A stretch of DNA of 64,000 bases from Escherichia phage ES17: the sequence record NC_070984.1. One strand, 5' to 3'. Positions 25,334 to 63,502 of this stretch are shown here, piece by piece. Position 1 is the first letter of the stretch; each line of letters begins with the position of its first letter. The translations under genes were made by a program, and so were the position numbers. The notes below the pieces were generated by a model, which was not told the origin of the DNA, did not search any database, and was given only the letters and a program-made list of their open reading frames with translations.

Positions 25334-25349
25334 GTCAAACCCTTTAGAC

Positions 25350-25373
25350 AAGAAAAGCCGCCCGAAGGCAGCT
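25350..25373 (-). terminator. Intrinsic terminator (UUCG-type hairpin)
   Basis: Minus-sense AGCUGCCUUCGGGCGGCU + UUUUCUUGUCU. Confidence 0.6.
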
Positions 25374-25565
25374 TCTTATTTAACTGTTCACTTTAGCTTC
25401 AAGTGTTTCGTTTTCAATACTCAAGTCAATCACTACACCAGTAAGCTCAACGACTGCTTGGCGAAGGGCATCTTTACCCATAGAGTGTACTTGAGATAAG
25501 AAGAAAGCTTTACCTTCTTCAGTGGATAGGGTTTCTTTTAATTCAGAAGCAGTCATTGATATTCC

Positions 25566-50453: not shown

Positions 50454-50606
50454 TTACTCCTGTTGTTTACACTCGTCAATAACCCACTGATAAGTGGATT
50501 GCCCAGAAAAGAAACACTGAATAAATCCAGATGTTCTCTGCGTTACCAGTGCTAGTGCACAAATCACTACCGCTGCTGCTAGCAGTTTTAAATCTAATTT
50601 AGACAT
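50454..50606 (-). CDS. Small signal-peptide protein (50 aa), not in ORF track
   Basis: RBS GAGAGGAAAT-ATG; MSKLDLKLLAAAVVICALALV...; stop 3 nt before next ATG. Confidence 0.35.
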   Translation of the reverse strand: MSKLDLKLLAAAVVICALALVTQRTSGFIQCFFSGQSTYQWVIDECKQQE

Positions 50607-50625: not shown

Positions 50626-50650
50626 AAAAAAGGACTCTCCGAAAAGAGTC
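50626..50650 (-). terminator. Intrinsic terminator
   Basis: Minus-sense GACUCU-UUUCGG-AGAGUC + CUUUUUU. Confidence 0.6.
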
Positions 50651-50715
50651 AAGCTTTAAATACAAAAAGATATTACCCAATATCTGTGGATAACCTGCTC
50701 TTAAAATATCTATCC

Positions 50716-50833
50716 GACGGATGTTCGAGGAATGTTCCTCTCCCTAGCATCGGCCCCATACGGGAAATATATTAAGATTAGGTTAGTTGAGTCAGAATAA
50801 CTCACATAGCCCTCCGAAGAAGGCTATAGGCGT
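50716..50833. repeat. Conserved intergenic element, copy 1
   Basis: Shares GGATGTTCGAG ... CTCTCCCTAGC ... CATA ... ATTAA ... CTCACATAGCCCT ... GGCTATA with copy at 55697-55806. Confidence 0.6.
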
Positions 50834-50841
50834 TACTACAA

Positions 50842-51057
50842 CTAAAAATCACTTGATTTTACAAAATCATCACTAAGGATTTCGTCAATTTCTTTGTTAG
50901 TCAAGTCTTTCCTGAACCAACAACAAGGTACATCCACCCATTGACCAGAGTTGTTTTCTACAGAGCATCTATTGCCTGTCTTACTCTTGCACTTATAGGT
51001 CTTACCTTTGTCTAGACGGTAGTGTATTCTGTAAACGATCGACACAAGTGTTATCAT
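50842..51057 (-). CDS. Cys-rich small protein
   Basis: CKSKTGNRCS ... VPCCW. Confidence 0.35.
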   Translation of the reverse strand: MITLVSIVYRIHYRLDKGKTYKCKSKTGNRCSVENNSGQWVDVPCCWFRKDLTNKEIDEILSDDFVKSSDF

Positions 51058-51290
51058 TACTCGCCTTTCTTAGCACGATCTTTGGCAGTTTTGCCAGTGC
51101 GGATGCGATGAGAAACGTTAACCAGAGTGCCACCATCAACTACGGTAACGCTCTTGTTTTTAGCCAGATCGAACACAGTTTTCTCTGTGCCACCCAAGCG
51201 AATTTGCTTAGGTTCGCTGAAGGTTTGGGTTGATTTGGATTGGAACTGGAACGGTTGACGGATTGCATCAATTGCACTTACTTTAGACAT
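51057..51290 (-). CDS. Hypothetical protein
   Basis: 77 aa; upstream leader holds GGGAATTCCC palindrome. Confidence 0.35.
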   Translation of the reverse strand: MSKVSAIDAIRQPFQFQSKSTQTFSEPKQIRLGGTEKTVFDLAKNKSVTVVDGGTLVNVSHRIRTGKTAKDRAKKGE

Positions 51291-51362
51291 AGGGGAAATT
51301 CCTTAAAAAGTCATGGCTGCGTAGAGGGAATTCCCTACGCAAATTGGGCCGCCCACAGAGAG

Positions 51363-51380
51363 GCGTCATAGTACTAAAAG
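51363..51380. repeat. 18-nt conserved motif GCGTCATAGTACTAAAAG, copy 1
   Basis: Identical 18-mer at 57853-57870; both followed in minus sense by a hairpin and U-run. Confidence 0.6.
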
Positions 51381-51523
51381 GAGGAGAGAAGAGGGCTTAT
51401 TTAGCTACCTTTTTCTGTCCGTTTACAAACCAGATAATTGAACCGTCAGGCTGGCGTTGACCGAAGCCTTTCTGGTTGATCATATCATCATAAGAATATG
51501 CTTTTGTTTTCACTTACTTACCC

Positions 51524-51775
51524 TTACATCGGAGTTAAGATGATCTCTGCTTTGGCAAACTTCTCGCCAACTTCAAGAGTGTCAGAAACAGGACGAGGTT
51601 CGCCTGTACCTAAATTAACTGCTCTGCGATATCCACCAGATAGAGGCATCATCAAATAAATGACCTGACTGTCATCATCTTTTAAAGTAAAGATGTCAGC
51701 GGTTGACAGATCTTTAACAAAGAGTTTCTTTTTTTCTTTGTTGTGAACCTTAATATGTATCGTGCTCATTCTCAC
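51524..51775 (-). CDS. Small-protein paralog family member 1
   Basis: 83 aa; family pattern MK...L..L..G.VF...[YW][IL]K...VNL..G. Confidence 0.45.
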   Translation of the reverse strand: MRMSTIHIKVHNKEKKKLFVKDLSTADIFTLKDDDSQVIYLMMPLSGGYRRAVNLGTGEPRPVSDTLEVGEKFAKAEIILTPM

Positions 51776-52017
51776 TCCTGAACCACAGACATACGAATCA
51801 TTTCTACCTGATCATCAAGACCTTTAACAGATAGTACACCTGTGGATAGATTCACTACAGGAACCCAGCCACTGGCTATACGGATGTTACCAGAAGCATT
51901 TTCAACCCTCATATAATACTGAGGAGAGGCACTTCCGTGCTGAACCATGAAGGGGTTTCCGGGAATGATTGTTTCCAATCGAACCGTATTATCCTTTTTC
52001 TTTGGGATGATTTTCAT
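51772..52017 (-). CDS. Small-protein paralog family member 2
   Basis: 81 aa; MKIIPKKKDNTVRLETIIPGNPF...VVNLSTG. Confidence 0.45.
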   Translation of the reverse strand: MKIIPKKKDNTVRLETIIPGNPFMVQHGSASPQYYMRVENASGNIRIASGWVPVVNLSTGVLSVKGLDDQVEMIRMSVVQE

Positions 52018-52265
52018 TATGTATTATCCACCAAAAGTTCTGCCGACACAGGAATAACTCGACAATAAATAGAAGGTGCTGTTACATTGCCATCAGACAG
52101 ACGAAGAGTGATTGATCTGTCAGAGTTGATAGTAACGTTTGGACTTGCAGACACAGACCCTTTGACATACAGGGTTGCATTGTCAGGAAACTTAAACACA
52201 GCTCCGCTGGGAAGTGAGTTGAGGTCAACTGTAGTCACTTCTTCTTTCTTGTGAGTAATCTTCAT
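52017..52265 (-). CDS. Small-protein paralog family member 3
   Basis: Start at internal MKITHKKEEVTTVDLNSLPSGAVF; track N-terminal extension overlaps next gene. Confidence 0.45.
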   Translation of the reverse strand: MKITHKKEEVTTVDLNSLPSGAVFKFPDNATLYVKGSVSASPNVTINSDRSITLRLSDGNVTAPSIYCRVIPVSAELLVDNT

Positions 52266-52266
52266 A

Positions 52267-52497
52267 TTATTTACCCTGAATAATAAGTTTAGATTCGAAC
52301 AGATCAACAGTATTGGACAAAGGGACAGGAAAGAAAATATCTTTAGGGTTCCGAACACACATTGCAGAATGCTCCCCTGTTTTTATCCAGAATTTAGGGA
52401 CTACATCGTCACCAGTAAAACGAAAAACATCTCCATTCTCCAAGTCAGAGAAAGTCTTGGAGGGTGTTTTGCTTTTTGGTACTAGCTCAAAATTCAT
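52267..52497 (-). CDS. Small-protein paralog family member 4
   Basis: 76 aa; FSDLENGDVFRF...KFWIKTGEH. Confidence 0.45.
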   Translation of the reverse strand: MNFELVPKSKTPSKTFSDLENGDVFRFTGDDVVPKFWIKTGEHSAMCVRNPKDIFFPVPLSNTVDLFESKLIIQGK

Positions 52498-52505
52498 CTT
52501 GATTC

Positions 52506-52817
52506 CTATTTAAGTTTGAGGCTAATGTTAAGGTGCATACATGCTCTGTTCTGTACAGCAGCATAACTTCTACCGAGCATGTCAGCCATTCTCTGAATAG
52601 ACATGAACCCAGCATTACGGATAAGGAACTGGTCCTCTTCTTCAGACCATTTAACTCGGATTGAAGCTCTTGATATGCCGAATTTAGTGCAAGCTGTGTT
52701 AACAGCATTCTCCGTTACATTCATAATCTGAGCTACTTCTTGAACCGAGTACTCTTTGATTAGTCTCCGAAGATTTTCAATCTGCATCGGAGTCCATATA
52801 GTTCTTCGTGCTTTCAT
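52506..52817 (-). CDS. Tandem helix-turn-helix DNA-binding protein (putative early regulator)
   Basis: Two repeats W-x-E-x-L...S.QE.A.....AV: WTPMQIENLRRLIKEYSVQEVAQIM and WSEEEDQFLIRNAGFMSIQRMADML. Confidence 0.4.
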   Translation of the reverse strand: MKARRTIWTPMQIENLRRLIKEYSVQEVAQIMNVTENAVNTACTKFGISRASIRVKWSEEEDQFLIRNAGFMSIQRMADMLGRSYAAVQNRACMHLNISLKLK

Positions 52818-53299
52818 ACATCCTCCAATTAATTGTTAAAACTATCAGGGGAGAACACTAGCTCTGGGCCACGCTGTAGATATCGGCCTACCTTCCACAG
52901 CTAATCAGCTAATATACTCCCCTAATAGTTTATGAATAGGGGGAGGGGACGAATCCTCCCTTATCCTATTAGTTAATATTGCATGTAAGATCTAACAATC
53001 GGTTGCCTTTGTAGGAATAAGCGTAAAGCCAATCCAGCACTAAACTCCCGCCCCCTTAGTGGGCTGGGTTATTAAAGGGTAACGCCCTTATGGGCTAGTT
53101 ACATGAATGTTAGTTTGATAGGAGATCTGAAGTCCTATCTCAAAGGACTCTCGTAAGAATCCTTCACGATATTACTTATTCATCTCTCGTCGGCTATCTC
53201 TCCAAGCCAACCAAGTGTAGGTTTTCAGTTCTTCAAAGTCTTCTGGAGAGAATAGATACTCTTTGAAGGTATCACCAAACCACTTTAAAAATTCTTTAG

Positions 53300-53560
53300 T
53301 CATGAGTCCTCATACTTTTTGTTAGGAAGGATGAAATCCCAAAGAGCAGCCCATACTGCGAGAGATATAAACAGTACAGCAATGATAGGCCATAGGAAAA
53401 CCATGGCTGCTATCTTTGCAAGGTCTGCTTCACCCCTCCAGTTTCTAAAGCATTCATCACCTTTAACATCTATAACCTTAATAAGTACTCCTGATAACAC
53501 CATACCTATCAGGTAGGTTATTAACATACTAACAAGACTGATCACAAGGCTGATCTCCAC
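53300..53560 (-). CDS. Two-TM small membrane protein
   Basis: 86 aa; ISLVISLVSMLITYLIGMVLSGVLI and LWPIIAVLFISLAVWAALW. Confidence 0.4.
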   Translation of the reverse strand: MEISLVISLVSMLITYLIGMVLSGVLIKVIDVKGDECFRNWRGEADLAKIAAMVFLWPIIAVLFISLAVWAALWDFILPNKKYEDS

Positions 53561-53702
53561 ATGTTTTACAGATCACTGGTGAGTAACTACAGGCAGGATA
53601 TACTGACACCCCATCAAACGTCTCACATCCACAATCAGGACATGTACCGTTGGATTCCATGTCATCATCGTCATCTACTTCACCGCCACCAAAACAACTC
53701 AT
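53529..53702 (-). CDS. Cys-rich zinc-ribbon mini-protein (57 aa), not in ORF track
   Basis: MSCFGGGEVDDDDDMESNGTCPDCGCETFDG...CKTCGDQPCDQSC. Confidence 0.35.
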   Translation of the reverse strand: MSCFGGGEVDDDDDMESNGTCPDCGCETFDGVSVYPACSYSPVICKTCGDQPCDQSC

Positions 53703-53711
53703 ACAGACTCC

Positions 53712-53933
53712 CTAATAAACTAAACCTACAGCCTTTGCATCAGGTTGAGGGACTACCTTTGCGCTAGGGCGATAACCATCCACTGAACCGTTCCAAAGAT
53801 TGACACAGGTGATATATCCATCGTCTATGATGTCTGTTTTAATCCAGAAGTGTTTATCATGACCAAAAATACTTCCGTTTGGCAGCGTGGACAGCTCAAC
53901 GGTTTTAAGGGACTGCTTAGAGTCTAGTTTCAT
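53712..53933 (-). CDS. Small-protein paralog family member 5
   Basis: 73 aa; LSTLPNGSIFGHDKHFWIKTD...CVNLWNG. Confidence 0.45.
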   Translation of the reverse strand: MKLDSKQSLKTVELSTLPNGSIFGHDKHFWIKTDIIDDGYITCVNLWNGSVDGYRPSAKVVPQPDAKAVGLVY

Positions 53934-53940
53934 AATAACC

Positions 53941-54189
53941 TCAATTATCGTAGCATGTATTCCAATACATGTAGTTAACGTACGTTCTCGGTTTGATTCC
54001 GTACATGATGAAGTGAGTCTTCTTAATCCTTTCCTTCAGCGTGTAATAAAGGCCATCACTGAAGTTACCAATCTTTACTTGGAAGCGTAAGGAGCGAGCA
54101 TCCATTCGAAGCATAGAGATTAACTGTACTCTACTACCCCCAGCCATCTCTTCAAGAAGCTTCTTTGTATTCCAATAATGAGCTGCCAT
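53941..54189 (-). CDS. Hypothetical protein
   Basis: 82 aa track ORF. Confidence 0.3.
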   Translation of the reverse strand: MAAHYWNTKKLLEEMAGGSRVQLISMLRMDARSLRFQVKIGNFSDGLYYTLKERIKKTHFIMYGIKPRTYVNYMYWNTCYDN

Positions 54190-54190
54190 A

Positions 54191-54472
54191 TTACCACTCC
54201 TTACCGGTTGTTGTTACAGAGCCACCACACCACTGCGCATCGGATAAGGTTTTAGTCTCCTCATCTACTGCTGCACCATTCAGACATGAGATACCATTGT
54301 AACGCATATCAATTTCACCAGAAGGAACCTTCTCACCTTTATGCCAGCGAGAAACACAAACACCTTCCACTGCTACTGCACACCATCCATCAGGACGGCT
54401 CTGTACGCAGCCTGTAAGGGCCACACAGACAAGGAAGATACAGATTAAGGATATTACACCACCCCAACTCAT
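54191..54472 (-). CDS. Cys-rich lipoprotein (candidate superinfection-exclusion / receptor-blocking protein)
   Basis: Signal peptide with lipobox ALTGC, five further Cys in 70-aa mature part. Confidence 0.5.
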   Translation of the reverse strand: MSWGGVISLICIFLVCVALTGCVQSRPDGWCAVAVEGVCVSRWHKGEKVPSGEIDMRYNGISCLNGAAVDEETKTLSDAQWCGGSVTTTGKEW

Positions 54473-54491
54473 GGCTACCTCCTATTTGATT

Positions 54492-54568
54492 TGGCGCACC
54501 CTACAGGATTCGAACCTGTAACCGACGGATTAGAAATCCGATGTTCTGTCCAATTGAACTAAGGGCGC
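54492..54568 (-). tRNA. tRNA-Arg(UCU): tRNA-Arg (anticodon UCU), CCA encoded
   Basis: Manual cloverleaf: acceptor GCGCCCU/AGGGUGC (one G-U), D stem GUUC/GAAC, anticodon loop UUUCUAA, T arm ACAGG-UUCGAAU-CCUGU, discriminator G + CCA. Confidence 0.85.
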
Positions 54569-54748
54569 GGAATTATTTAGATCATATCTCGCTTGGTGAT
54601 ATGACCACATGTTTTGCACTGCATGATATAGCGTACACCTTTATGTTTCGTACCACCATAATCATCAGTGATCTTTAGTGTATACTTCTCAAGAATTACC
54701 CAATCATGCAGATGGAATAGACGTTTAAACCACTTGAACATAATAACC

Positions 54749-55000
54749 TCAAGCGCAAGCAGGGAGAGTGATGATTTTATACTTGCCTTCAAACTCTCCA
54801 AATAAACCCAAGAATGTAGGACTGTAAGTACCAGTACAAACAAACTCATCAAACAATGCGTTATAACTAGGCTTGATCTTCCAAGCCCATACATAACCCA
54901 TCTTGTCAATTGCAATGTAACGAGTGTTCAGAGGAACAGTCATCATTATACCATCAACTTCGATCACTTTAGTGATTGGTGCAGCTTGGAAGTTTTTCAT
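54749..55000 (-). CDS. Hypothetical protein
   Basis: 83 aa; ATG overlaps stop of upstream mini-gene (ATGA). Confidence 0.35.
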   Translation of the reverse strand: MKNFQAAPITKVIEVDGIMMTVPLNTRYIAIDKMGYVWAWKIKPSYNALFDEFVCTGTYSPTFLGLFGEFEGKYKIITLPACA

Positions 55001-55173
55001 ACTTTACCTTTGATAAAAATGTCATTACCACAGACACAGCATGAACGAACAACAGTAGCGCCACGCTGAACGATACGGACCTCTTCCTTAACCAGATTAA
55101 CACGAGCACCACAGCAAGGAGAGTTGACATAAGAGTAACCAGCTTGTGTATTCTTGATTGTTTGCTTAGACAT
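54997..55173 (-). CDS. Cys-rich mini-protein (58 aa), not in ORF track
   Basis: MSKQTIKNTQAGYSYVNSPCCGARVN...SCCVCGND. Confidence 0.35.
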   Translation of the reverse strand: MSKQTIKNTQAGYSYVNSPCCGARVNLVKEEVRIVQRGATVVRSCCVCGNDIFIKGKV

Positions 55174-55272
55174 TTGAGCTTCCTCTTGTTAGTTTAGGTA
55201 AACCACCCCAATCACTGCTGCACTCATTCATGTGGAATGCAGATGGGAAAAGTAATTAAAGGTGATTTACCT

Positions 55273-55301
55273 AAAACAACAAAGGCCACCCGAAGGCAGC
55301 C
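55273..55301 (-). terminator. Intrinsic terminator (UUCG-type hairpin)
   Basis: Minus-sense GGCUGCC-UUCG-GGUGGCC (G-U pairs) + UUUGUUGUUUU. Confidence 0.6.
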
Positions 55302-55310
55302 TTTTATTTA

Positions 55311-55451
55311 TTAACTGTTATACGTCCAACCACCTTGCTTGTTACGGATGGCTGACATTGCATGAATCCAAAAGCCTTCCAGTTTCAGAGCACCATTAGC
55401 TACTGCATCCATACGTTCAGGGCGGTTCATACGTTTGGTTGATACTTTCAT
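55311..55451 (-). CDS. Small basic protein (46 aa), not in ORF track
   Basis: MKVSTKRMNRPERMDAVANGALKLEGFWIHAMSAIRNKQGGWTYNS. Confidence 0.3.
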   Translation of the reverse strand: MKVSTKRMNRPERMDAVANGALKLEGFWIHAMSAIRNKQGGWTYNS

Positions 55452-55696
55452 ACCTATCTCTCTTTGTTAGTGGAGGCATTATTGCCAGTTGATATAAGGG
55501 ATAGCCCTAGTCAGTAGACTAATCCTGACCGCGTACTCATTGCCGACCTTCTCTGCCTAAGAGTTCAGGTTCTAGAGCTATCTCTTATTCCAACTGGTGA
55601 AGACTCCCTACCCCTAGGAAGTCTCCTGAATCCCAAACTAATACGTACCCCTACATATCAGAAAGTCTTTCGAAAATTAACAGGTTTTAGTCTAGC

Positions 55697-55806
55697 ACCG
55701 GATGTTCGAGCAAGCTCTCCCTAGCGGTGTGGCATATGCCTGAATTAATAAGTTAATGAGGAACACCCTCACATAGCCCTCTGATAAACACAAGGGCTAT
55801 AAGTCG
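55697..55806. repeat. Conserved intergenic element, copy 2
   Basis: See copy 1 at 50716-50833; includes inverted repeat ATAGCCC ... GGGCTAT. Confidence 0.6.
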
Positions 55807-55809
55807 ATG

Positions 55810-56028
55810 TTACTTTTGAGTCAAACACAGATCGGGACGTGGCATAACAGTGGTTGATAGACCGAAGACTTCAACATAACCGCTGCTCAAGTTAGCAGCC
55901 TTACGCAAACCGTCAGAGGTCTTATCTTCTAGCATCAGCCAGAAACGTTTATCGTAAGAGAAAACATCACCGCCCTTAACATCTTCTGCATTTGCATATT
56001 TAGGATAATCAACTACTTTAATTTCCAT
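55810..56028 (-). CDS. Small-protein paralog family member 6
   Basis: 72 aa; AEDVKGGDVFSYDKRFWLMLED...AANLSSG. Confidence 0.45.
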   Translation of the reverse strand: MEIKVVDYPKYANAEDVKGGDVFSYDKRFWLMLEDKTSDGLRKAANLSSGYVEVFGLSTTVMPRPDLCLTQK

Positions 56029-57694: not shown

Positions 57695-57722
57695 ATAAAA
57701 AAGCCCCAGCCGTAGCCGGGGC
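57695..57722 (-). terminator. Intrinsic terminator (UACG tetraloop)
   Basis: Minus-sense GCCCCGGC-UACG-GCUGGGGC + UUUUUU. Confidence 0.75.
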
Positions 57723-57784: not shown

Positions 57785-57807
57785 CAAAAAGCCGCTCAAA
57801 GGCGGCT
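57785..57807 (-). terminator. Intrinsic terminator
   Basis: Minus-sense AGCCGC-CUUUGA-GCGGCU + UUUUUGCG. Confidence 0.65.
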
Positions 57808-59100: not shown

Positions 59101-59133
59101 AAAAGAAAAGGCGCTACCCGTTAAGATAGCGCC
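59101..59133 (-). terminator. Intrinsic terminator
   Basis: Minus-sense GGCGCUA ... UAGCGCC stem + UUUUCUUUU after stop at 59158. Confidence 0.7.
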
Positions 59134-59157
59134 TTATGTTTATTTAAATTGTATTAC

Positions 59158-60066: not shown

Positions 60067-60880
60067 CTTTCAATTGTAAGGGCGCTATTGCCCCGCTCTC
60101 TATGAGCTTGTTTAAGTCACTATTAACTTAACTATAACCACTCGTTGTTAAGTAGTTATAGGTAAGCGGGGCGGTCTTATCAGGAGTTAACCTTGCCGCC
60201 CCCTTATCCGTGATGTTTCATCTGGTATCTTTAATTAGTCGCTATAAACGAAGCCGACCTGATAGCGATGATCAATCATCACAATAAGGCTATGCGTCCG
60301 ACTCTATTTAATTACATTGCTGTAACCGTCGGCAATATCGTCTACTTTGTTTTCGCTCCCGCTTATCCTTTTGTATCAGCTCTCTATCGCTAGTCATCGC
60401 CCACTACGGGATACTATTGCGAAAGAGTCACTAACCGCCTAATATTCCGGCGTTTTATATCTTTCAGCAGGTTTACTACATAACCCGGCTATGTACTTTC
60501 ATCCTATGATGAATCTCAAGCCGTTCACATCGTAAACGTTCGCATTAAACCTTATTGTTAAATAGCAATTTGCCACTTTTTAACCACTCCCCGCCGCTCT
60601 CAATTGAGCGTTAATTCGTCGGACTTGCCTACCCTGATTAACTTCTTTCACTGTAGCACCGTGTTAGCAATGACCGCCGCTACCCTTAACCGTGGGCGAT
60701 TAGCTCAAGTCTTTGCGTGTACTCAATGAATCCGTTTATCAATGGTGACGTTTCCAGTAAGGGAATGTAAAACTGTTTACCCTGATAATTTAGGGAGTTT
60801 TACGCCGTTTTATCTGGTATGCTTTCCGATGGTTATTATCATCAAGCATATTCAACCGATATAGGAGAATGTTTAAATTA

Positions 60881-60890
60881 TTAAAGAGCG
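60881..60890 (-). promoter_or_regulatory. boxA-like element A (transcript CCGCUCUUUAAUAAUUUA)
   Basis: Matches rrn boxA UGCUCUUUAACAAUUUA at 15/17; preceded in transcript by hairpin AGUGUG-AGAAAG-CACACU. Confidence 0.55.
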
Positions 60891-60980
60891 GTAAATCTAT
60901 CAGTGTGCTTTCTCACACTATGCAACTGTTAGCCGTTGTTACGCTTTTCACTGAAGCGATGATTTGCTTAGTGAGTGCTC

Positions 60981-61009
60981 ATTATGAATCATGTTGTTTT
61001 CGCTGTCAA
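60981..61009 (-). promoter_or_regulatory. Sigma70-like early promoter P2
   Basis: Minus-sense TTGACA - 17 nt - CATAAT. Confidence 0.55.
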
Positions 61010-61114
61010 CCGCTTTTTAATCTTTTTTCGTCGTTCCCGCTATTGGGAGGATATATCAATCAGCTTTGTTTGATTGAAGATTAAGCGGTGAGGCTTAACT
61101 TATGATTCATATTG

Positions 61115-61124
61115 TTAAAGAGCG
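61115..61124 (-). promoter_or_regulatory. boxA-like element B (transcript CGCUCUUUAACAAU)
   Basis: 13-nt identity with rrn boxA core GCTCTTTAACAAT. Confidence 0.55.
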
Positions 61125-61391
61125 TTTTTAGCCTTTTATAGTGTCTGCTAATCACTGCATCATTGAAGGCTTACTGATTCATTAACAGGACGCCTAACCC
61201 TGAACTACTCGCTGCACTATGTGCCACCTTTCCCGCGATACGTTGATTTGGGAACTTGTTAGCGGTGTATCTGCTAACTTGTGGTTAGTATGGACTACTT
61301 TAACCACGTTTGCAACTCTTTTTATCATCTTCTTTTAATTCCTTTCCCTTATCTCGCGTGAATCTATGCGAAAGGGCAAGATGATAAGTTT

Positions 61392-61401
61392 TTAAAGAGC
61401 G
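61392..61401 (-). promoter_or_regulatory. boxA-like element C (transcript CCGCUCUUUAAAAACUUAUCA)
   Basis: About 30 nt downstream of P1; preceded by GUCA-GCGA-UGAC hairpin. Confidence 0.5.
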
Positions 61402-61431
61402 GGATTTTTTAAGTCATCGCTGACTATGCTC

Positions 61432-61460
61432 ACTATATGTCAGGCTGTTTTCGGTGTCAA
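61432..61460 (-). promoter_or_regulatory. Sigma70-like early promoter P1
   Basis: Minus-sense TTGACA - 17 nt - TATAGT. Confidence 0.6.
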
Positions 61461-61499
61461 TACTCTTTTTGAGAATATTTTCACTTTCTAGCCTGATTT

Positions 61500-61509
61500 T
61501 TAAAGAGCG
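61500..61509 (-). promoter_or_regulatory. boxA-like element D (transcript CCGCUCUUUAAAAAUCAG)
   Basis: Immediately preceded by boxB-like hairpin GGCAA-GAAA-UUGCC; about 45 nt downstream of P3. Confidence 0.55.
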
Positions 61510-61556
61510 GGGCAATTTCTTGCCTTGTATGTTTTACATCGTACCCGATGAAATGA

Positions 61557-61584
61557 AGTATACGCTAATCAGATGAGGTTGCAA
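61557..61584 (-). promoter_or_regulatory. Sigma70-like early promoter P3
   Basis: Minus-sense TTGCAA - 16 nt - TATACT. Confidence 0.5.
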
Positions 61585-61843
61585 TAGGGTAAAGCAAATT
61601 ATTTTAAACTTTTTCACTATAGGAAGGTAAAAGAGCAGGCGCACGCGATACATCATAGAAAATGGCTTGTAAAGCGATATTTAGCGGCCTAAAACGCATC
61701 ACAACGAGCTAAAAGGGAGTAAGGCATACAATCACCTCATAAAAGAGAAAAGCCTCACTAGGAGGCTTACAGGAAGGATTAGAGAATCAGATAAATTATG
61801 ACCATAGGCATGACTACGGCACAATACAGGAGAAAGATTAAGC

Positions 61844-63474: not shown

Positions 63475-63502
63475 ACTATATAATAAAGGAAAAGACTGTC
63501 AA
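63475..63502 (-). promoter_or_regulatory. Sigma70-like promoter
   Basis: Minus-sense TTGACA - 16 nt - TATAGT. Confidence 0.55.

Follow-up and report, generated by a model that had tools for sequence, protein, structure and literature searches.

The window analysed here is the 64,000-nucleotide stretch of Escherichia phage ES17 (NC_070984.1), a phiEco32-like (Kuravirus) coliphage. Every gene around the two elements described below lies on the minus strand, and the elements are therefore to be read as reverse complements. Copy A is situated between the homologues of phi32_91 and phi32_90, and copy B between those of phi32_113 and phi32_112. The earlier note had placed both upstream of small early genes; ORFs of 50 and 46 amino acids do come next, with the correction that these genes are on the minus strand. 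The main features of the two loci are the following.

50454-50606, minus strand: 50-aa ORF after copy A, phi32_90 homologue, with its ATG at 50604-50606
50626..50650, minus strand: intrinsic terminator, GACUCUU-UUCG-GAGAGUC followed by C and U6 (terminator scan)
50685-50693: perfect DnaA-box consensus TGTGGATAA (TTATCCACA on the minus strand), exact match, beside copy A only
50685..50845, minus strand: copy A, whole structured RNA (5' flank/P0, P1, P2, linker, P3, P5, internal loop, P4, P6 3' strand), covariance-model match of 161.9 bits
55281..55304, minus strand: intrinsic terminator downstream of the 46-aa phi32_112 homologue, with 10 pairs and the tail GUUGUUUUAG in the terminator scan
55311-55451, minus strand: 46-aa ORF after copy B, phi32_112 homologue
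55599..55658, minus strand: two more conserved hairpins 3' of copy B, with GGGG tetraloops
55696..55812, minus strand: copy B (copy-A-only model, E = 5.8e-10; model R2, 119 bits)

The two copies share three long blocks in identical order, none of which has a further exact copy in the 64 kb.

50719-50729 and 55700-55710: shared block GGATGTTCGAG
50738-50748 and 55715-55725: shared block CTCTCCCTAGC
50801-50814 and 55768-55781: shared block CTCACATAGCCCTC

Taken singly, the observed counts of GGATGTTCGAG, CTCTCCCTAGC and CTCACATAGCCCTC were reached in 19/100, 3/100 and 5/100 shuffles, but the blocks as an ordered set cannot be attributed to chance. A covariance model trained on copy-A homologues only, with copy B left out, recovered copy B at 55.5 bits (E = 5.8e-10), and a filters-off covariance search of the window found, besides both copies, nothing better than E = 0.03. 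Aligned over 119 columns, the copies show 67% identity. The blocks and the model thus confirm that two related elements lie where the earlier note had put them, at 50716-50833 and 55697-55806.

Read as the transcribed strand, both copies adopt a common helix set (P0/P1, P2, P3, P5 and P4) within a non-coding element of ~120-160 nt and five to six helices, in which P5 and P4 flank an invariant 7x7 internal loop, CUAGGG(A/C) // (G/A)AACAUC. The parts of copy A are listed first.

50832..50837, minus strand: 5' flank AGUAAC, the P0 5' strand, pairing with GUUAUU at 50796-50801 (RNAalifold)
50805..50828, minus strand: P1 hairpin UAUAGCCUUC-UUCG-GAGGGCUAUG, ten pairs, 99% of cells paired
50788..50804, minus strand: P2 hairpin UGAGU-UAUUCUG-ACUCA, fifth pair GC 12, UA 11, CG 3
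50755..50764, minus strand: P3 mini-hairpin CCC-GUAU-GGG, two of three pairs covarying
50714..50753, minus strand: 3' domain (P5, internal loop, P4)
50753-50748 with 50719-50714, minus strand: P5, CCGAUG with CGUCGG, three compensatory pairs
50747-50741 // 50726-50720, minus strand: internal loop CUAGGGA // GAACAUC, closed by P5
50740-50727, minus strand: P4, GAGGA-ACAU-UCCUC, two compensatory pairs
50704-50699 and 50696-50691, minus strand: P6 3' strands UUAAGA and AGGUUA, pairing with UCUUAA at 50777-50772 and UAACCU at 50785-50780

The corresponding parts of copy B and its 3' flank are as follows.

55811-55806, minus strand: 5' flank AACAUC, overlapping the TAA stop of the phi32_113 homologue
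55801-55772, 55771-55757 and 55740-55731, minus strand: P1, P2 and P3
55729-55725 with 55700-55696, minus strand: P5, CACCG with CGGUG
55724-55718 // 55707-55701, minus strand: internal loop CUAGGGA // GAACAUC
55717-55708, minus strand: P4, GAG-CUUG-CUC
55658-55641, minus strand: downstream hairpin 1, AUAUGUA-GGGG-UACGUAU (RNAalifold with covariation; in the MFE structure)
55626-55599, minus strand: downstream hairpin 2, GGAGACUUCCUA-GGGG-UAGGGAGUCUUC (in the MFE structure)

The hairpin of the earlier note, whose stem is maintained while its loop differs between the copies, is P1, on the minus strand at 50828-50805 and 55801-55772. Its loop varies freely (UUCG, CUCG, CUCC, CUUC, or 7-12 nt), and U-G, C-G, U-A and A-U exchanges were seen in its stem; P4 likewise carries a hypervariable loop on an invariant stem. 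P3 reads CCC/GGG in copy A and GGC/GCC in copy B; ECBP2-type copy B and the 7-11 group have GCC/GGC. In copy A, the 5' flank directly follows the TAG stop (50842-50844) of the phi32_91 homologue; the P0 column pair 12-54 is AU in 8, GC in 1 and GU in 1, and one A-C breaks P0 in the ECBP2 group. P0 of copy B (AACAYC with GRUGUU) shows CG in 6, UA in 3 and UG in 2. Because P2 shares 2 nt with the P0 3' strand, P0 and P2 are alternative or pseudoknotted. P6 is a predicted long-range helix closing copy A (RNAalifold and single-sequence MFE), with three compensatory pairs between lineages in helix 2 and an invariant helix 1. Both GGGG hairpins downstream of copy B have invariant loops, and the differences in their stems between phages were noted by visual inspection of an alignment.

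Across 26 distinct sequences, 98% of cells pair and 11 pairs show compensatory changes; over all analyses, pairing is 97.5-98.2% canonical, with 11-13 pairs changed on both sides. Slid controls fall to 34-52%, and the observed values were reached in 0/500 shuffles. An unfitted MAFFT alignment of copy A gave 97.5% of cells paired and 13 compensatory pairs, where shuffles gave 3.4 +/- 1.5. The structure is confined to the sense strand, because G-U cells number 67 and A-C cells 2; the MFE z of copy A is -3.78 in sense and -1.61 in antisense, and its single-sequence MFE recovers every helix. The internal-loop positions adjoining P4 are A/G in 28 sequences, C/A in 13 and A/A in 3, and never C/G. 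A conserved multi-hairpin RNA structure common to both copies is therefore well supported, and the covariance analysis across related phages that the earlier note had suggested yielded compensatory pairs far above shuffles, in a structure of five to six helices, larger than the one hairpin claimed. A search of Rfam with the elements matched no family, riboswitch families included.

Homologues proved to be near-universal in about 100 relatives, which answers the earlier note's concern that relatives might lack them. The element was found in 97-102 phage records, with exactly two copies in each of the Kuravirus-like genomes examined, and the distant Salmonella phage 7-11 group retains copy A together with its DnaA box and terminator. 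The copy A intergenic region is 69-74% identical in DNA to that of the 7-11 group, equal to the best-conserved enzyme genes; right of 47.8 kb, the only DNA alignable with this group is that region and a 44-nt stretch starting intergenic region C. Region C is a third structured intergenic region with a similar layout. In every annotated relative, a stop codon lies within the element's 5' flank, though the upstream gene differs among phages. The elements do recombine, since ECBP2-type copy A bears a B-type P1 and EcoN5 has its A block duplicated. A third lineage with the same ligase cluster has no element.

Each module begins where the preceding gene ends, at its stop codon, and an intrinsic terminator lies downstream. 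The terminator of copy A starts ~35 nt past P6 and ends 20 nt 5' of the ATG of the phi32_90 homologue, so that the genes beyond it can be reached only by read-through; a promoter would not fit in between. It is kept in the Kuravirus-like and 7-11 lineages, with compensatory changes in the upper stem, and the 7-11 record lists it as a terminator. For copy B, the first terminator downstream is the one at 55281..55304, with one or two tiny genes intervening; phiEco32 has a matching terminator site after phi32_111, following gp112/gp111 downstream of copy B. Strong minus-strand terminators also occur at 59135, 57807 and 57722, past the early promoters (61460, 61009) and ahead of copy B, and no element precedes them; therefore, either the element is not the sole read-through device, or those sites end separate transcription units. 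In phage 7-11, long leftward early transcripts originate from just two sigma-70 promoters, situated at its extreme right: five were predicted, and only the two upstream of gene 151 were validated. The promoters of the early genes of SU10 and phiEco32 have also been described as far upstream (PMC4281155).

Several other explanations of the elements have to be weighed, two of which concern the DNA itself. The DnaA-box-like site that the earlier note had assigned to one copy is indeed a perfect consensus, but it lies ~25 nt outside the repeated part, in the 3' flank of copy A only. There GGTTATCCACA shows no change among Kuravirus-like and 7-11-like phages, and the first bases of the box fall in AGGUUA (50696-50691), which is also the 3' strand of the predicted long-range RNA helix. 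In inverted orientation, ~42 nt around the box match the leader of E. coli nrdD, which indicates a duplex DNA site at that spot. It is nevertheless quite improbable that the elements act as a replication origin or single-strand initiation signal (DnaA box plus non-template-strand hairpins), an operator, or a recombination boundary of early gene cassettes, even though they recombine and stay in place while upstream genes change. For the repeated part, the G-U/A-C asymmetry and the fact that loops are hypervariable where stems are invariant speak against the operator proposed in the earlier note; only one strand tolerates G-U pairs, and compensatory changes keep pairing, not sequence. The DnaA box is single, with none at copy B, the number of boxes in the window (23, with 17.8 expected) shows no enrichment, GC skew has no inflection at either copy, and recombination leaves the invariant internal loop unexplained. 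Repeated intergenic stem-loop motifs that flank small, variable early ORFs and are plausible recombination boundaries are also found in the PeSL (promoter-early stem-loop) cassettes of T4-type phages, reportedly described by Arbiol, Comeau and Krisch in 2010; however, a PeSL is an early promoter with a single stem-loop, whereas here there is no promoter, and a multi-helix covarying fold surrounds an invariant internal loop. That the conserved blocks are promoters of the downstream small genes, used by sigma-70 or the phage gp36 sigma, is hardly credible. One weak sigma-70-like match in copy A (CTGACT, 18 nt, TATATT, 9/12, 50795-50766) could be cited for it, but sequence inspection showed that it is kept neither in copy B nor in the 7-11 group. 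The promoter scan near both copies found no conserved -35/-10, promoter-like sites in the region are fewer than in shuffled sequence (15 vs 18.0), the gp36-type consensus TAATGTATA is absent near either copy, and any promoter here would still be upstream of the terminator.

The remaining alternatives accept a functional RNA. The elements may, though this is unlikely, form an RNA processing or stability module, in which RNase E or another endonuclease would cut the AU-rich single-stranded P2-P3 linker (CUAAUCUUAAUAUAUUU in A, UUAACUUAUUAAUU in B), with the upstream mRNA shielded at its 3' end by P0, P1 and P2 and the downstream mRNA at its 5' end by P3, P5 and P4, so that segments of the early polycistronic transcript get different half-lives. 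The order of a stable hairpin, the linker and further stable hairpins would suit this, as would the frequent UUCG-type stable tetraloops of P1, the similar layout of the third intergenic region, and the CUUCGG hairpins elsewhere in the 7-11 genome, which the 7-11 paper invokes as mRNA stabilisers or processing sites. The T7 RNase III sites and T4 CUUCGG hairpins are similarly intergenic in early polycistronic mRNA and include very stable UNCG-type hairpins; the present helices (3-10 bp), however, are too short for classical RNase III sites. Simple protective hairpins need neither an invariant 7x7 internal loop kept across copies and phage families nor a three-way junction with a long-range closing helix, stabiliser hairpins have no such conserved junction and loop, and the copy A linker is partly paired in the predicted P6. 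It is rather doubtful that stable trans-acting ncRNAs are released from the early transcript, copy A being a ~215-nt 3'-UTR-type sRNA ending at the terminator, and either titrate a host RNA-binding protein or base-pair with host mRNAs via the invariant loop sequences. After copy A come an AU-rich stretch, the terminator hairpin and its U6 tail, an arrangement that we take to resemble the Hfq-binding module of enterobacterial sRNAs; the B intergenic region (358 nt) is conserved and highly structured with invariant GGGG loops, and CTAGGG is rarer than expected in the window (12 observed vs 21.6), yet 3/12 fall in the B region. On the other hand, the promoter searches found no dedicated promoter, no target or partner was identified, and the downstream genes still depend on read-through of that same terminator. 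It also seems improbable that the junction domain (P6, P3, P5, P4) is the aptamer of a riboswitch-like or protein-responsive attenuator, whose occupancy would decide terminator formation and tune the metabolic operon after copy A (amidoligase, glutamine amidotransferase, ATP-grasp, COOH-NH2 ligase). The architecture of copy A is aptamer-like, with an invariant internal loop; as in transcriptional riboswitches and leader attenuators, a structured domain with a closing helix stands directly ahead of an intrinsic terminator and an enzyme operon, and this enzyme cluster is common to both lineages retaining copy A. However, the elements are intra-operon, right after a stop codon, and not a 5' leader, with no known ligand; the pairing between the P6 3' strand (AAGAG) and the terminator 5' arm (CUCUU) is weak (4-6 bp) and poorly conserved on manual inspection, only tiny genes of unassigned function follow copy B, and the third lineage has the same enzymes without the element.

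We tentatively propose instead that the elements are cis-acting RNAs controlling read-through of the adjacent terminator, and thus a candidate antitermination device. The nascent RNA would fold, and its invariant internal loop would be bound by the elongating host RNA polymerase (as happens with put) or by a protein of the host or the phage (as happens with nut); this binding would let the polymerase pass the terminator and express the downstream block, which past copy A starts with gp90, takes in the amidoligase, GATase and ATP-grasp genes and continues beyond them. A terminating ribosome could sway the choice of P0 or P2, because the P0 5' strand holds the upstream stop codon. HK022 putL/putR are likewise a paralogous cis-acting RNA pair, ~65-70% alike, in early transcripts that the host RNA polymerase makes in its unmodified form, upstream of terminators to be passed, and put function relies on helix bulges and internal loops (PMC9378689). 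However, put is ~70 nt, consists of two long stem-loops arranged as a V and is found near PL and PR, one per operon, whereas the present elements, with their putative antitermination, are ~120-160 nt, kilobases from promoters, on one strand and in one early region, and the element model found no match in HK022. The lambda nutL/nutR sites and the rrn leaders (boxA, boxB, boxC) are also duplicated early-transcript RNA signals combining hairpins with conserved single-stranded sequence, and in lambda, read-through of downstream terminators is licensed through N and Nus factors. Here, the hairpin loops are variable with no fixed GNRA-like pentaloop, the best boxA match was 8/12 in copy B with none in copy A, and no N-like protein was recognised among the neighbouring genes. 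Against the read-through reading, the 7-11 group has a single copy ~18 kb from the promoters, the third lineage carries the ligase cluster without the element, manual inspection showed only the weak, poorly conserved 4-6 bp pairing between element and terminator, and a leaky terminator would require no antiterminator.

Of the regulatory RNA structure shared by both copies that the earlier note envisaged, the structure stands, and the regulatory part is suggested by position. The best explanation is that both copies belong to a family of structured RNA modules that had not been described before, carried within the sigma-70-driven early transcripts of phiEco32-like phages. With modest confidence, and judging from sequence, we regard them as the best candidate for the so-far undefined read-through device of these phages.

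The 5.7 kb surrounding the two elements are 90-95% identical to phiEco32 and about 100 relatives (Kuravirus, Gordonclarkvirinae), and because the genes here, from about 25 kb to 64 kb, all lie on the minus strand, the elements are to be read as the reverse complement. The two paralogues are located in intergenic gaps of the early region as follows:

Copy A: 50716-50833, minus strand, in the 235-nt gap between the phi32_91 homologue (50842-51057) and the phi32_90 homologue (50454-50606)
Copy B: 55697-55806, minus strand, in the 358-nt gap between the phi32_113 homologue (55810-56028) and the phi32_112 homologue (55311-55451)

The three long sequence blocks that an earlier note had described as shared were found at both places in identical order and nowhere else in the window; any single block could recur by chance, but the ordered set could not. 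A covariance model trained on 14 homologues of copy A, with copy B excluded, recovered copy B at 55.5 bits (E = 5.8e-10) and, with filters off, found no other site in the window better than E = 0.03. Over 119 aligned columns, copies A and B share 67% identity. The hairpin with a changing loop that the same note had seen is helix P1, which has 9-10 bp and a freely variable loop. The common fold, which appears on the transcribed strand, was derived from 26 distinct sequences of 13 phages and 16 more from metagenomes, and its other parts are:

5' flank: AGUAAC in copy A and AACAYC in copy B, containing or abutting the stop codon of the upstream gene
P0: the 5' flank paired with the bases just 3' of P1
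P2: UGAGN...NCUCA, with a fifth pair that is U-A, G-C or C-G depending on the sequence
P3: a 3-bp mini-hairpin, CCC/GGG, GGC/GCC or GCC/GGC
P5: CCGAUG with CGUCGG in copy A, CACCG with CGGUG in copy B, UCGGUG with CGCCGA in Salmonella phage 7-11
Internal loop: invariant, 7x7, CUAGGG(A/C) // (G/A)AACAUC, between P5 and P4
P4: invariant at its GAG/CUC base, variable in the extension, hypervariable in the loop
P6 (copy A gap): UAACCU with AGGUUA and UCUUAA with UUAAGA, long-range, taken from the unfitted alignment

In the model-fitted alignment, canonical pairs occupied 98.2% of 742 cells and 11 of the 29 pairs had changed on both sides, and when the partners were slid by 1-3 columns as a control, pairing fell to 34-47%. 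In an unfitted MAFFT alignment of the whole copy A gap, 97.5% of the cells were paired and 13 compensatory pairs were observed, compared with 3.4 +/- 1.5 in shuffles. P6 closes P3, P5 and P4 into a junction; a B-type counterpart (CAGG with CCUG) was rejected, as it clashes with P3 and shows no covariation. P0 and P2 have 1-2 bases in common while each has its own covariation, and are therefore alternative or pseudoknotted. Judged by eye, none of the K-turn, sarcin-ricin and 11-nt tetraloop-receptor motifs fits the conserved loops.

The conserved structure is RNA and not duplex DNA. G-U pairs fill 67 cells of the alignment and A-C only 2, so that the opposite strand would have mismatches, the folding z-score is -3.78 on the sense strand and -1.61 on the antisense strand, and the loops drift while the stems stay. 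A role of the sense strand as single-stranded DNA is formally possible, although the early region is actively transcribed and this strand corresponds to its mRNA. Protein-coding sequence was rejected, because the coding strand of both gaps contains no ORF of at least 40 aa and none that is kept across relatives (copy B holds only a 33-aa TTG ORF), and because stem changes are compensatory and the indels, which shift loop lengths by 2, 3, 4 and 9 nt, do not keep to multiples of three. A tRNA or tRNA-like element was also rejected, as ARAGORN finds only tRNA-Arg. The same tRNA-Arg (54495-54568) is the only feature of the whole window that reaches a gathering threshold in Rfam 15, and at both loci matches with E up to 10 were at chance level (13-18 bits against thresholds of 40-219). 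We regard the elements as very probably a new family of structured RNA modules.

The earlier note had counted a lack of homologous elements in relatives among what would refute its reading, but homologues are present: copy A was found in 102 phage records, copy B in 97, and the 7-11 group has copy A as well. Exactly one A and one B occur at every Kuravirus-like locus examined except EcoN5, in which the A block is duplicated. Salmonella phages 7-11, SE131 and pSal-SNUABM-01, which belong to another family (Grimontviridae), keep copy A, the DnaA box and the terminator in the syntenic place with 69-74% identity. Right of 47.8 kb, only the copy A gap and 44 nt of a third intergenic gap can be aligned between both phage groups. 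No B-type copy was found in the right-hand 40 kb of either genome of the 7-11 group, and no further copies in phiEco32 beyond the window. A third lineage sharing the ligase cluster is without the element, and in 19 more distant viral contigs neither the model nor a fuzzy motif detected a copy at the loci around COOH-NH2-ligase homologues. An exact-pattern scan of IMG/VR returned only Kuravirus-like and 7-11-like contigs plus one chance match (locus L004), and the same scan of JGI and ENA metagenomes returned the same kinds of contig, with chance matches that the model rejected. In EcoN5 (locus L017, 7030-9223), the gp92-like and gp91-like genes, copy A, gp90 and gp89 are duplicated in tandem, giving two identical A copies, and in ECBP2-type phages the A copy bears a B-type P1 hairpin; both indicate recombination at or between the elements.

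Region C, on the minus strand at 52818-53171, is the third long gap without coding sequence in the early operon and has homologues in loci L013 (8757-8953) and L014 (30951-31179, from 7-11). Its start resembles that of the two copies, with a stop codon accompanied by AAGUAAUAUCG, then a hairpin with a UACG loop, UUGAG, another hairpin and AAACUAAC. A mini-hairpin GCCC-AUAA-GGGC comes next, after which the sequences diverge until a terminator-like UUCG hairpin at the end. Every Kuravirus-like locus and the 7-11 group keep region C, with 10 compensatory pairs, and the A/B model gives it only E = 0.04. In the gp126/gp125 gap of 7-11 (L014, 29340-29409), there is also a P1-like hairpin, AAGCCUUCU-UUCG-AGAGGGCUU, followed by a U-rich tail, with a weak model match at the same place in pSal-SNUABM-01.

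The surroundings of the elements are conserved as well. The 5' flank holds the stop codon of the upstream gene in every annotated relative, even where that gene differs (gp91, gp93 or 7-11 gp112 before copy A; gp113 or gp116 before copy B), and the downstream gene is constant. Copy A is followed by the invariant GGTTATCCACA and, about 35 nt past it, by an intrinsic terminator; further terminators lie upstream of copy B:

50650-50626, minus strand: intrinsic terminator after copy A, GACTCTTTTCGGAGAGTC then CTTTTTT, with a 7-bp stem, UUCG loop and U6
59108-59135, 57790-57807 and 57703-57722, minus strand: strong intrinsic terminators between the early promoters and copy B

With its G+C-rich stem-loop and U tract on the transcribed strand, the terminator after copy A is predicted to be Rho-independent; both lineages keep it, with compensatory changes, and it is annotated as a terminator in NC_015938. 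It ends 20 nt before the next ATG, and because of this adjacency the genes from gp90 through the amidoligase, GATase and ATP-grasp cluster can be transcribed only by read-through. After copy B come two conserved hairpins with GGGG loops, a 46-aa gene (in phiEco32 also gp111) and then a terminator. The GGGG hairpins (55599-55658, minus strand) have an invariant tetraloop closed by UA/UA, and their stems vary between phages in a compensatory way. The 358-nt gap of copy B contains UAGGG(G/A) five times, and a 58-nt indel (about 55590-55533) separates phage subgroups. A 107-nt CTAGGG periodicity in the B region was rejected, since its third site is not conserved and the indel falls between the sites in relatives. 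A second repeated non-coding signal consists of two 35-nt terminator hairpins, 25348-25382 (ACAAGAAAAGCCGCCCGAAGGCAGCTTCTTATTTA) and 55276-55310 (ACAACAAAGGCCACCCGAAGGCAGCCTTTTATTTA), which are 86% identical, the latter following the phi32_112 homologue.

Early genes of SU10 and phiEco32 are described as transcribed from right-end promoters (PMC4281155). In the window, strong sigma-70 promoters lie far upstream of the elements, at 63502, 61460 and 61009. A stretch of ~1.8-1.9 kb at about 60067-61843 (phiEco32 72787-74730) contains no minus-strand ORF of at least 50 aa and no annotated phiEco32 gene; it contains the promoters at 61460 and 61009 (both 11/12) and 61584 (9/12), leaving a leader of about 900 nt ahead of the first early gene. 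For 7-11, the only sigma-70 promoters confirmed by primer extension are two that precede gene 151, and the early transcripts cover almost half of the genome (PMC8948821). That the elements might themselves be promoters was rejected: neither copy has conserved -35/-10 hexamers, the only promoter-like match (9/12, copy A) is by inspection not conserved in copy B or 7-11, and the gp36 element TAATGTATA does not occur within 1 kb of either copy.

A site acting at the DNA level is another, improbable explanation, to which the DnaA box relates. The box reported in the earlier note exists as an exact consensus TGTGGATAA at 50685-50693 on the minus strand, but it lies outside the repeated part and accompanies copy A only. 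The window contains 23 DnaA boxes with at most one mismatch against 17.8 expected, and the GC skew has no inflection at either copy; a DnaA-dependent origin or box cluster was rejected because of the single box and the uninflected skew. The first bases of the box, AGGUUA, form the 3' strand of P6, and this pairing would explain part of its conservation but not that of UCCACA. About 42 nt around the box (50665-50706) match the leader that immediately precedes the start codon of nrdD with 86-95% identity in 5326 of 5426 complete E. coli genomes, inverted relative to transcription (locus L073, 1197-1242), and that leader has two perfect DnaA boxes. The match points to a duplex DNA site common to phage and host, possibly bound by DnaA with or without another factor; we found no literature on it.

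For the RNA modules themselves, we tentatively favour a cis-acting read-through (antitermination) function of the put or nut type, while considering it somewhat less than an even bet. The modules are parts of host-polymerase transcripts and sit just ahead of terminators that the polymerase has to pass, their invariant internal loop would suit binding of polymerase or a protein, making it a likely candidate binding site, and they are strongly conserved in two phage groups sharing the read-through problem. On the other side, upstream terminators lack an element: the one at 57703-57722 is followed by the next gene after only about 55 nt with no promoter detected there, so that read-through is also needed where no A/B-type element exists. 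In addition, the 7-11 group has a single copy distant from its promoters, and a leaky terminator would need no helper. The modules could instead serve in RNA processing and stability, act as a riboswitch-like attenuator of the enzyme operon or be released as an ncRNA; the last of these rival readings agrees with the end of copy A, which resembles an Hfq-type terminator module. A CsrA sponge was rejected because GGA motifs occur at about chance frequency in a rough hand count.

The modules are members of neither the put nor the nut family: they lack a boxA and a fixed loop, differ in size and topology, and give no model match. The put RNA of HK022 has two long stem-loops in about 70 nt (PMC9378689), whereas the elements fold into five to six helices within 120-160 nt, and the covariance model R2 of the elements, run with filters off over the whole HK022 genome, gave no match better than E = 0.3. 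put suppresses terminators by acting in cis on host RNA polymerase, with no need of protein factors; the position that this would require, upstream of a terminator within a host-polymerase transcript, is seen in the elements. A fuzzy search for boxA (GCUCUUUAACAA or CGCUCUUA) that covered intergenic regions A, B and C found no site in copy A, and the best in copy B, CCTCATTAACTT, has 4/12 mismatches. The boxB of lambda-type nut and rrn sites is a hairpin whose conserved loop binds an arginine-rich, N-like protein, whereas the P1 and P4 loops are hypervariable. The only matches of the neighbouring proteins are to PHROGs of unknown function, with none to a Pfam family, and an unrecognised N-like peptide may be among them.

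We consider it rather unlikely, yet worth stating, that A, B and region C form a new class of processive antitermination RNA for the early transcripts of phiEco32-like and 7-11-like phages. The modules, alone or with a small phage protein, would make E. coli or Salmonella RNA polymerase resist the intrinsic terminators punctuating the 20-40-kb early transcripts, and the P0/P2 alternative overlapping the stop codon would couple them to the upstream gene's translation.

Sigma-factor appropriation has phiEco32 and 7-11 among its model phages, and the early genes of both depend on very long transcripts made by unmodified host polymerase across intrinsic terminators. The authors of the 7-11 study conclude that there must be an antitermination strategy, which "remains to be defined" (Lavysh et al. 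2022; PMC8948821), and processive antitermination RNA, if real, would be that strategy and the first put-like mechanism in lytic, non-lambdoid phages. An RNA family supported by covariation right before a conserved terminator makes this question directly testable. Whatever the function, the elements, which current annotations leave blank or cover with spurious small ORFs, are a structured RNA family that had not been described, and about 100 sequenced coliphages carry it, some of which serve in therapy-oriented work.
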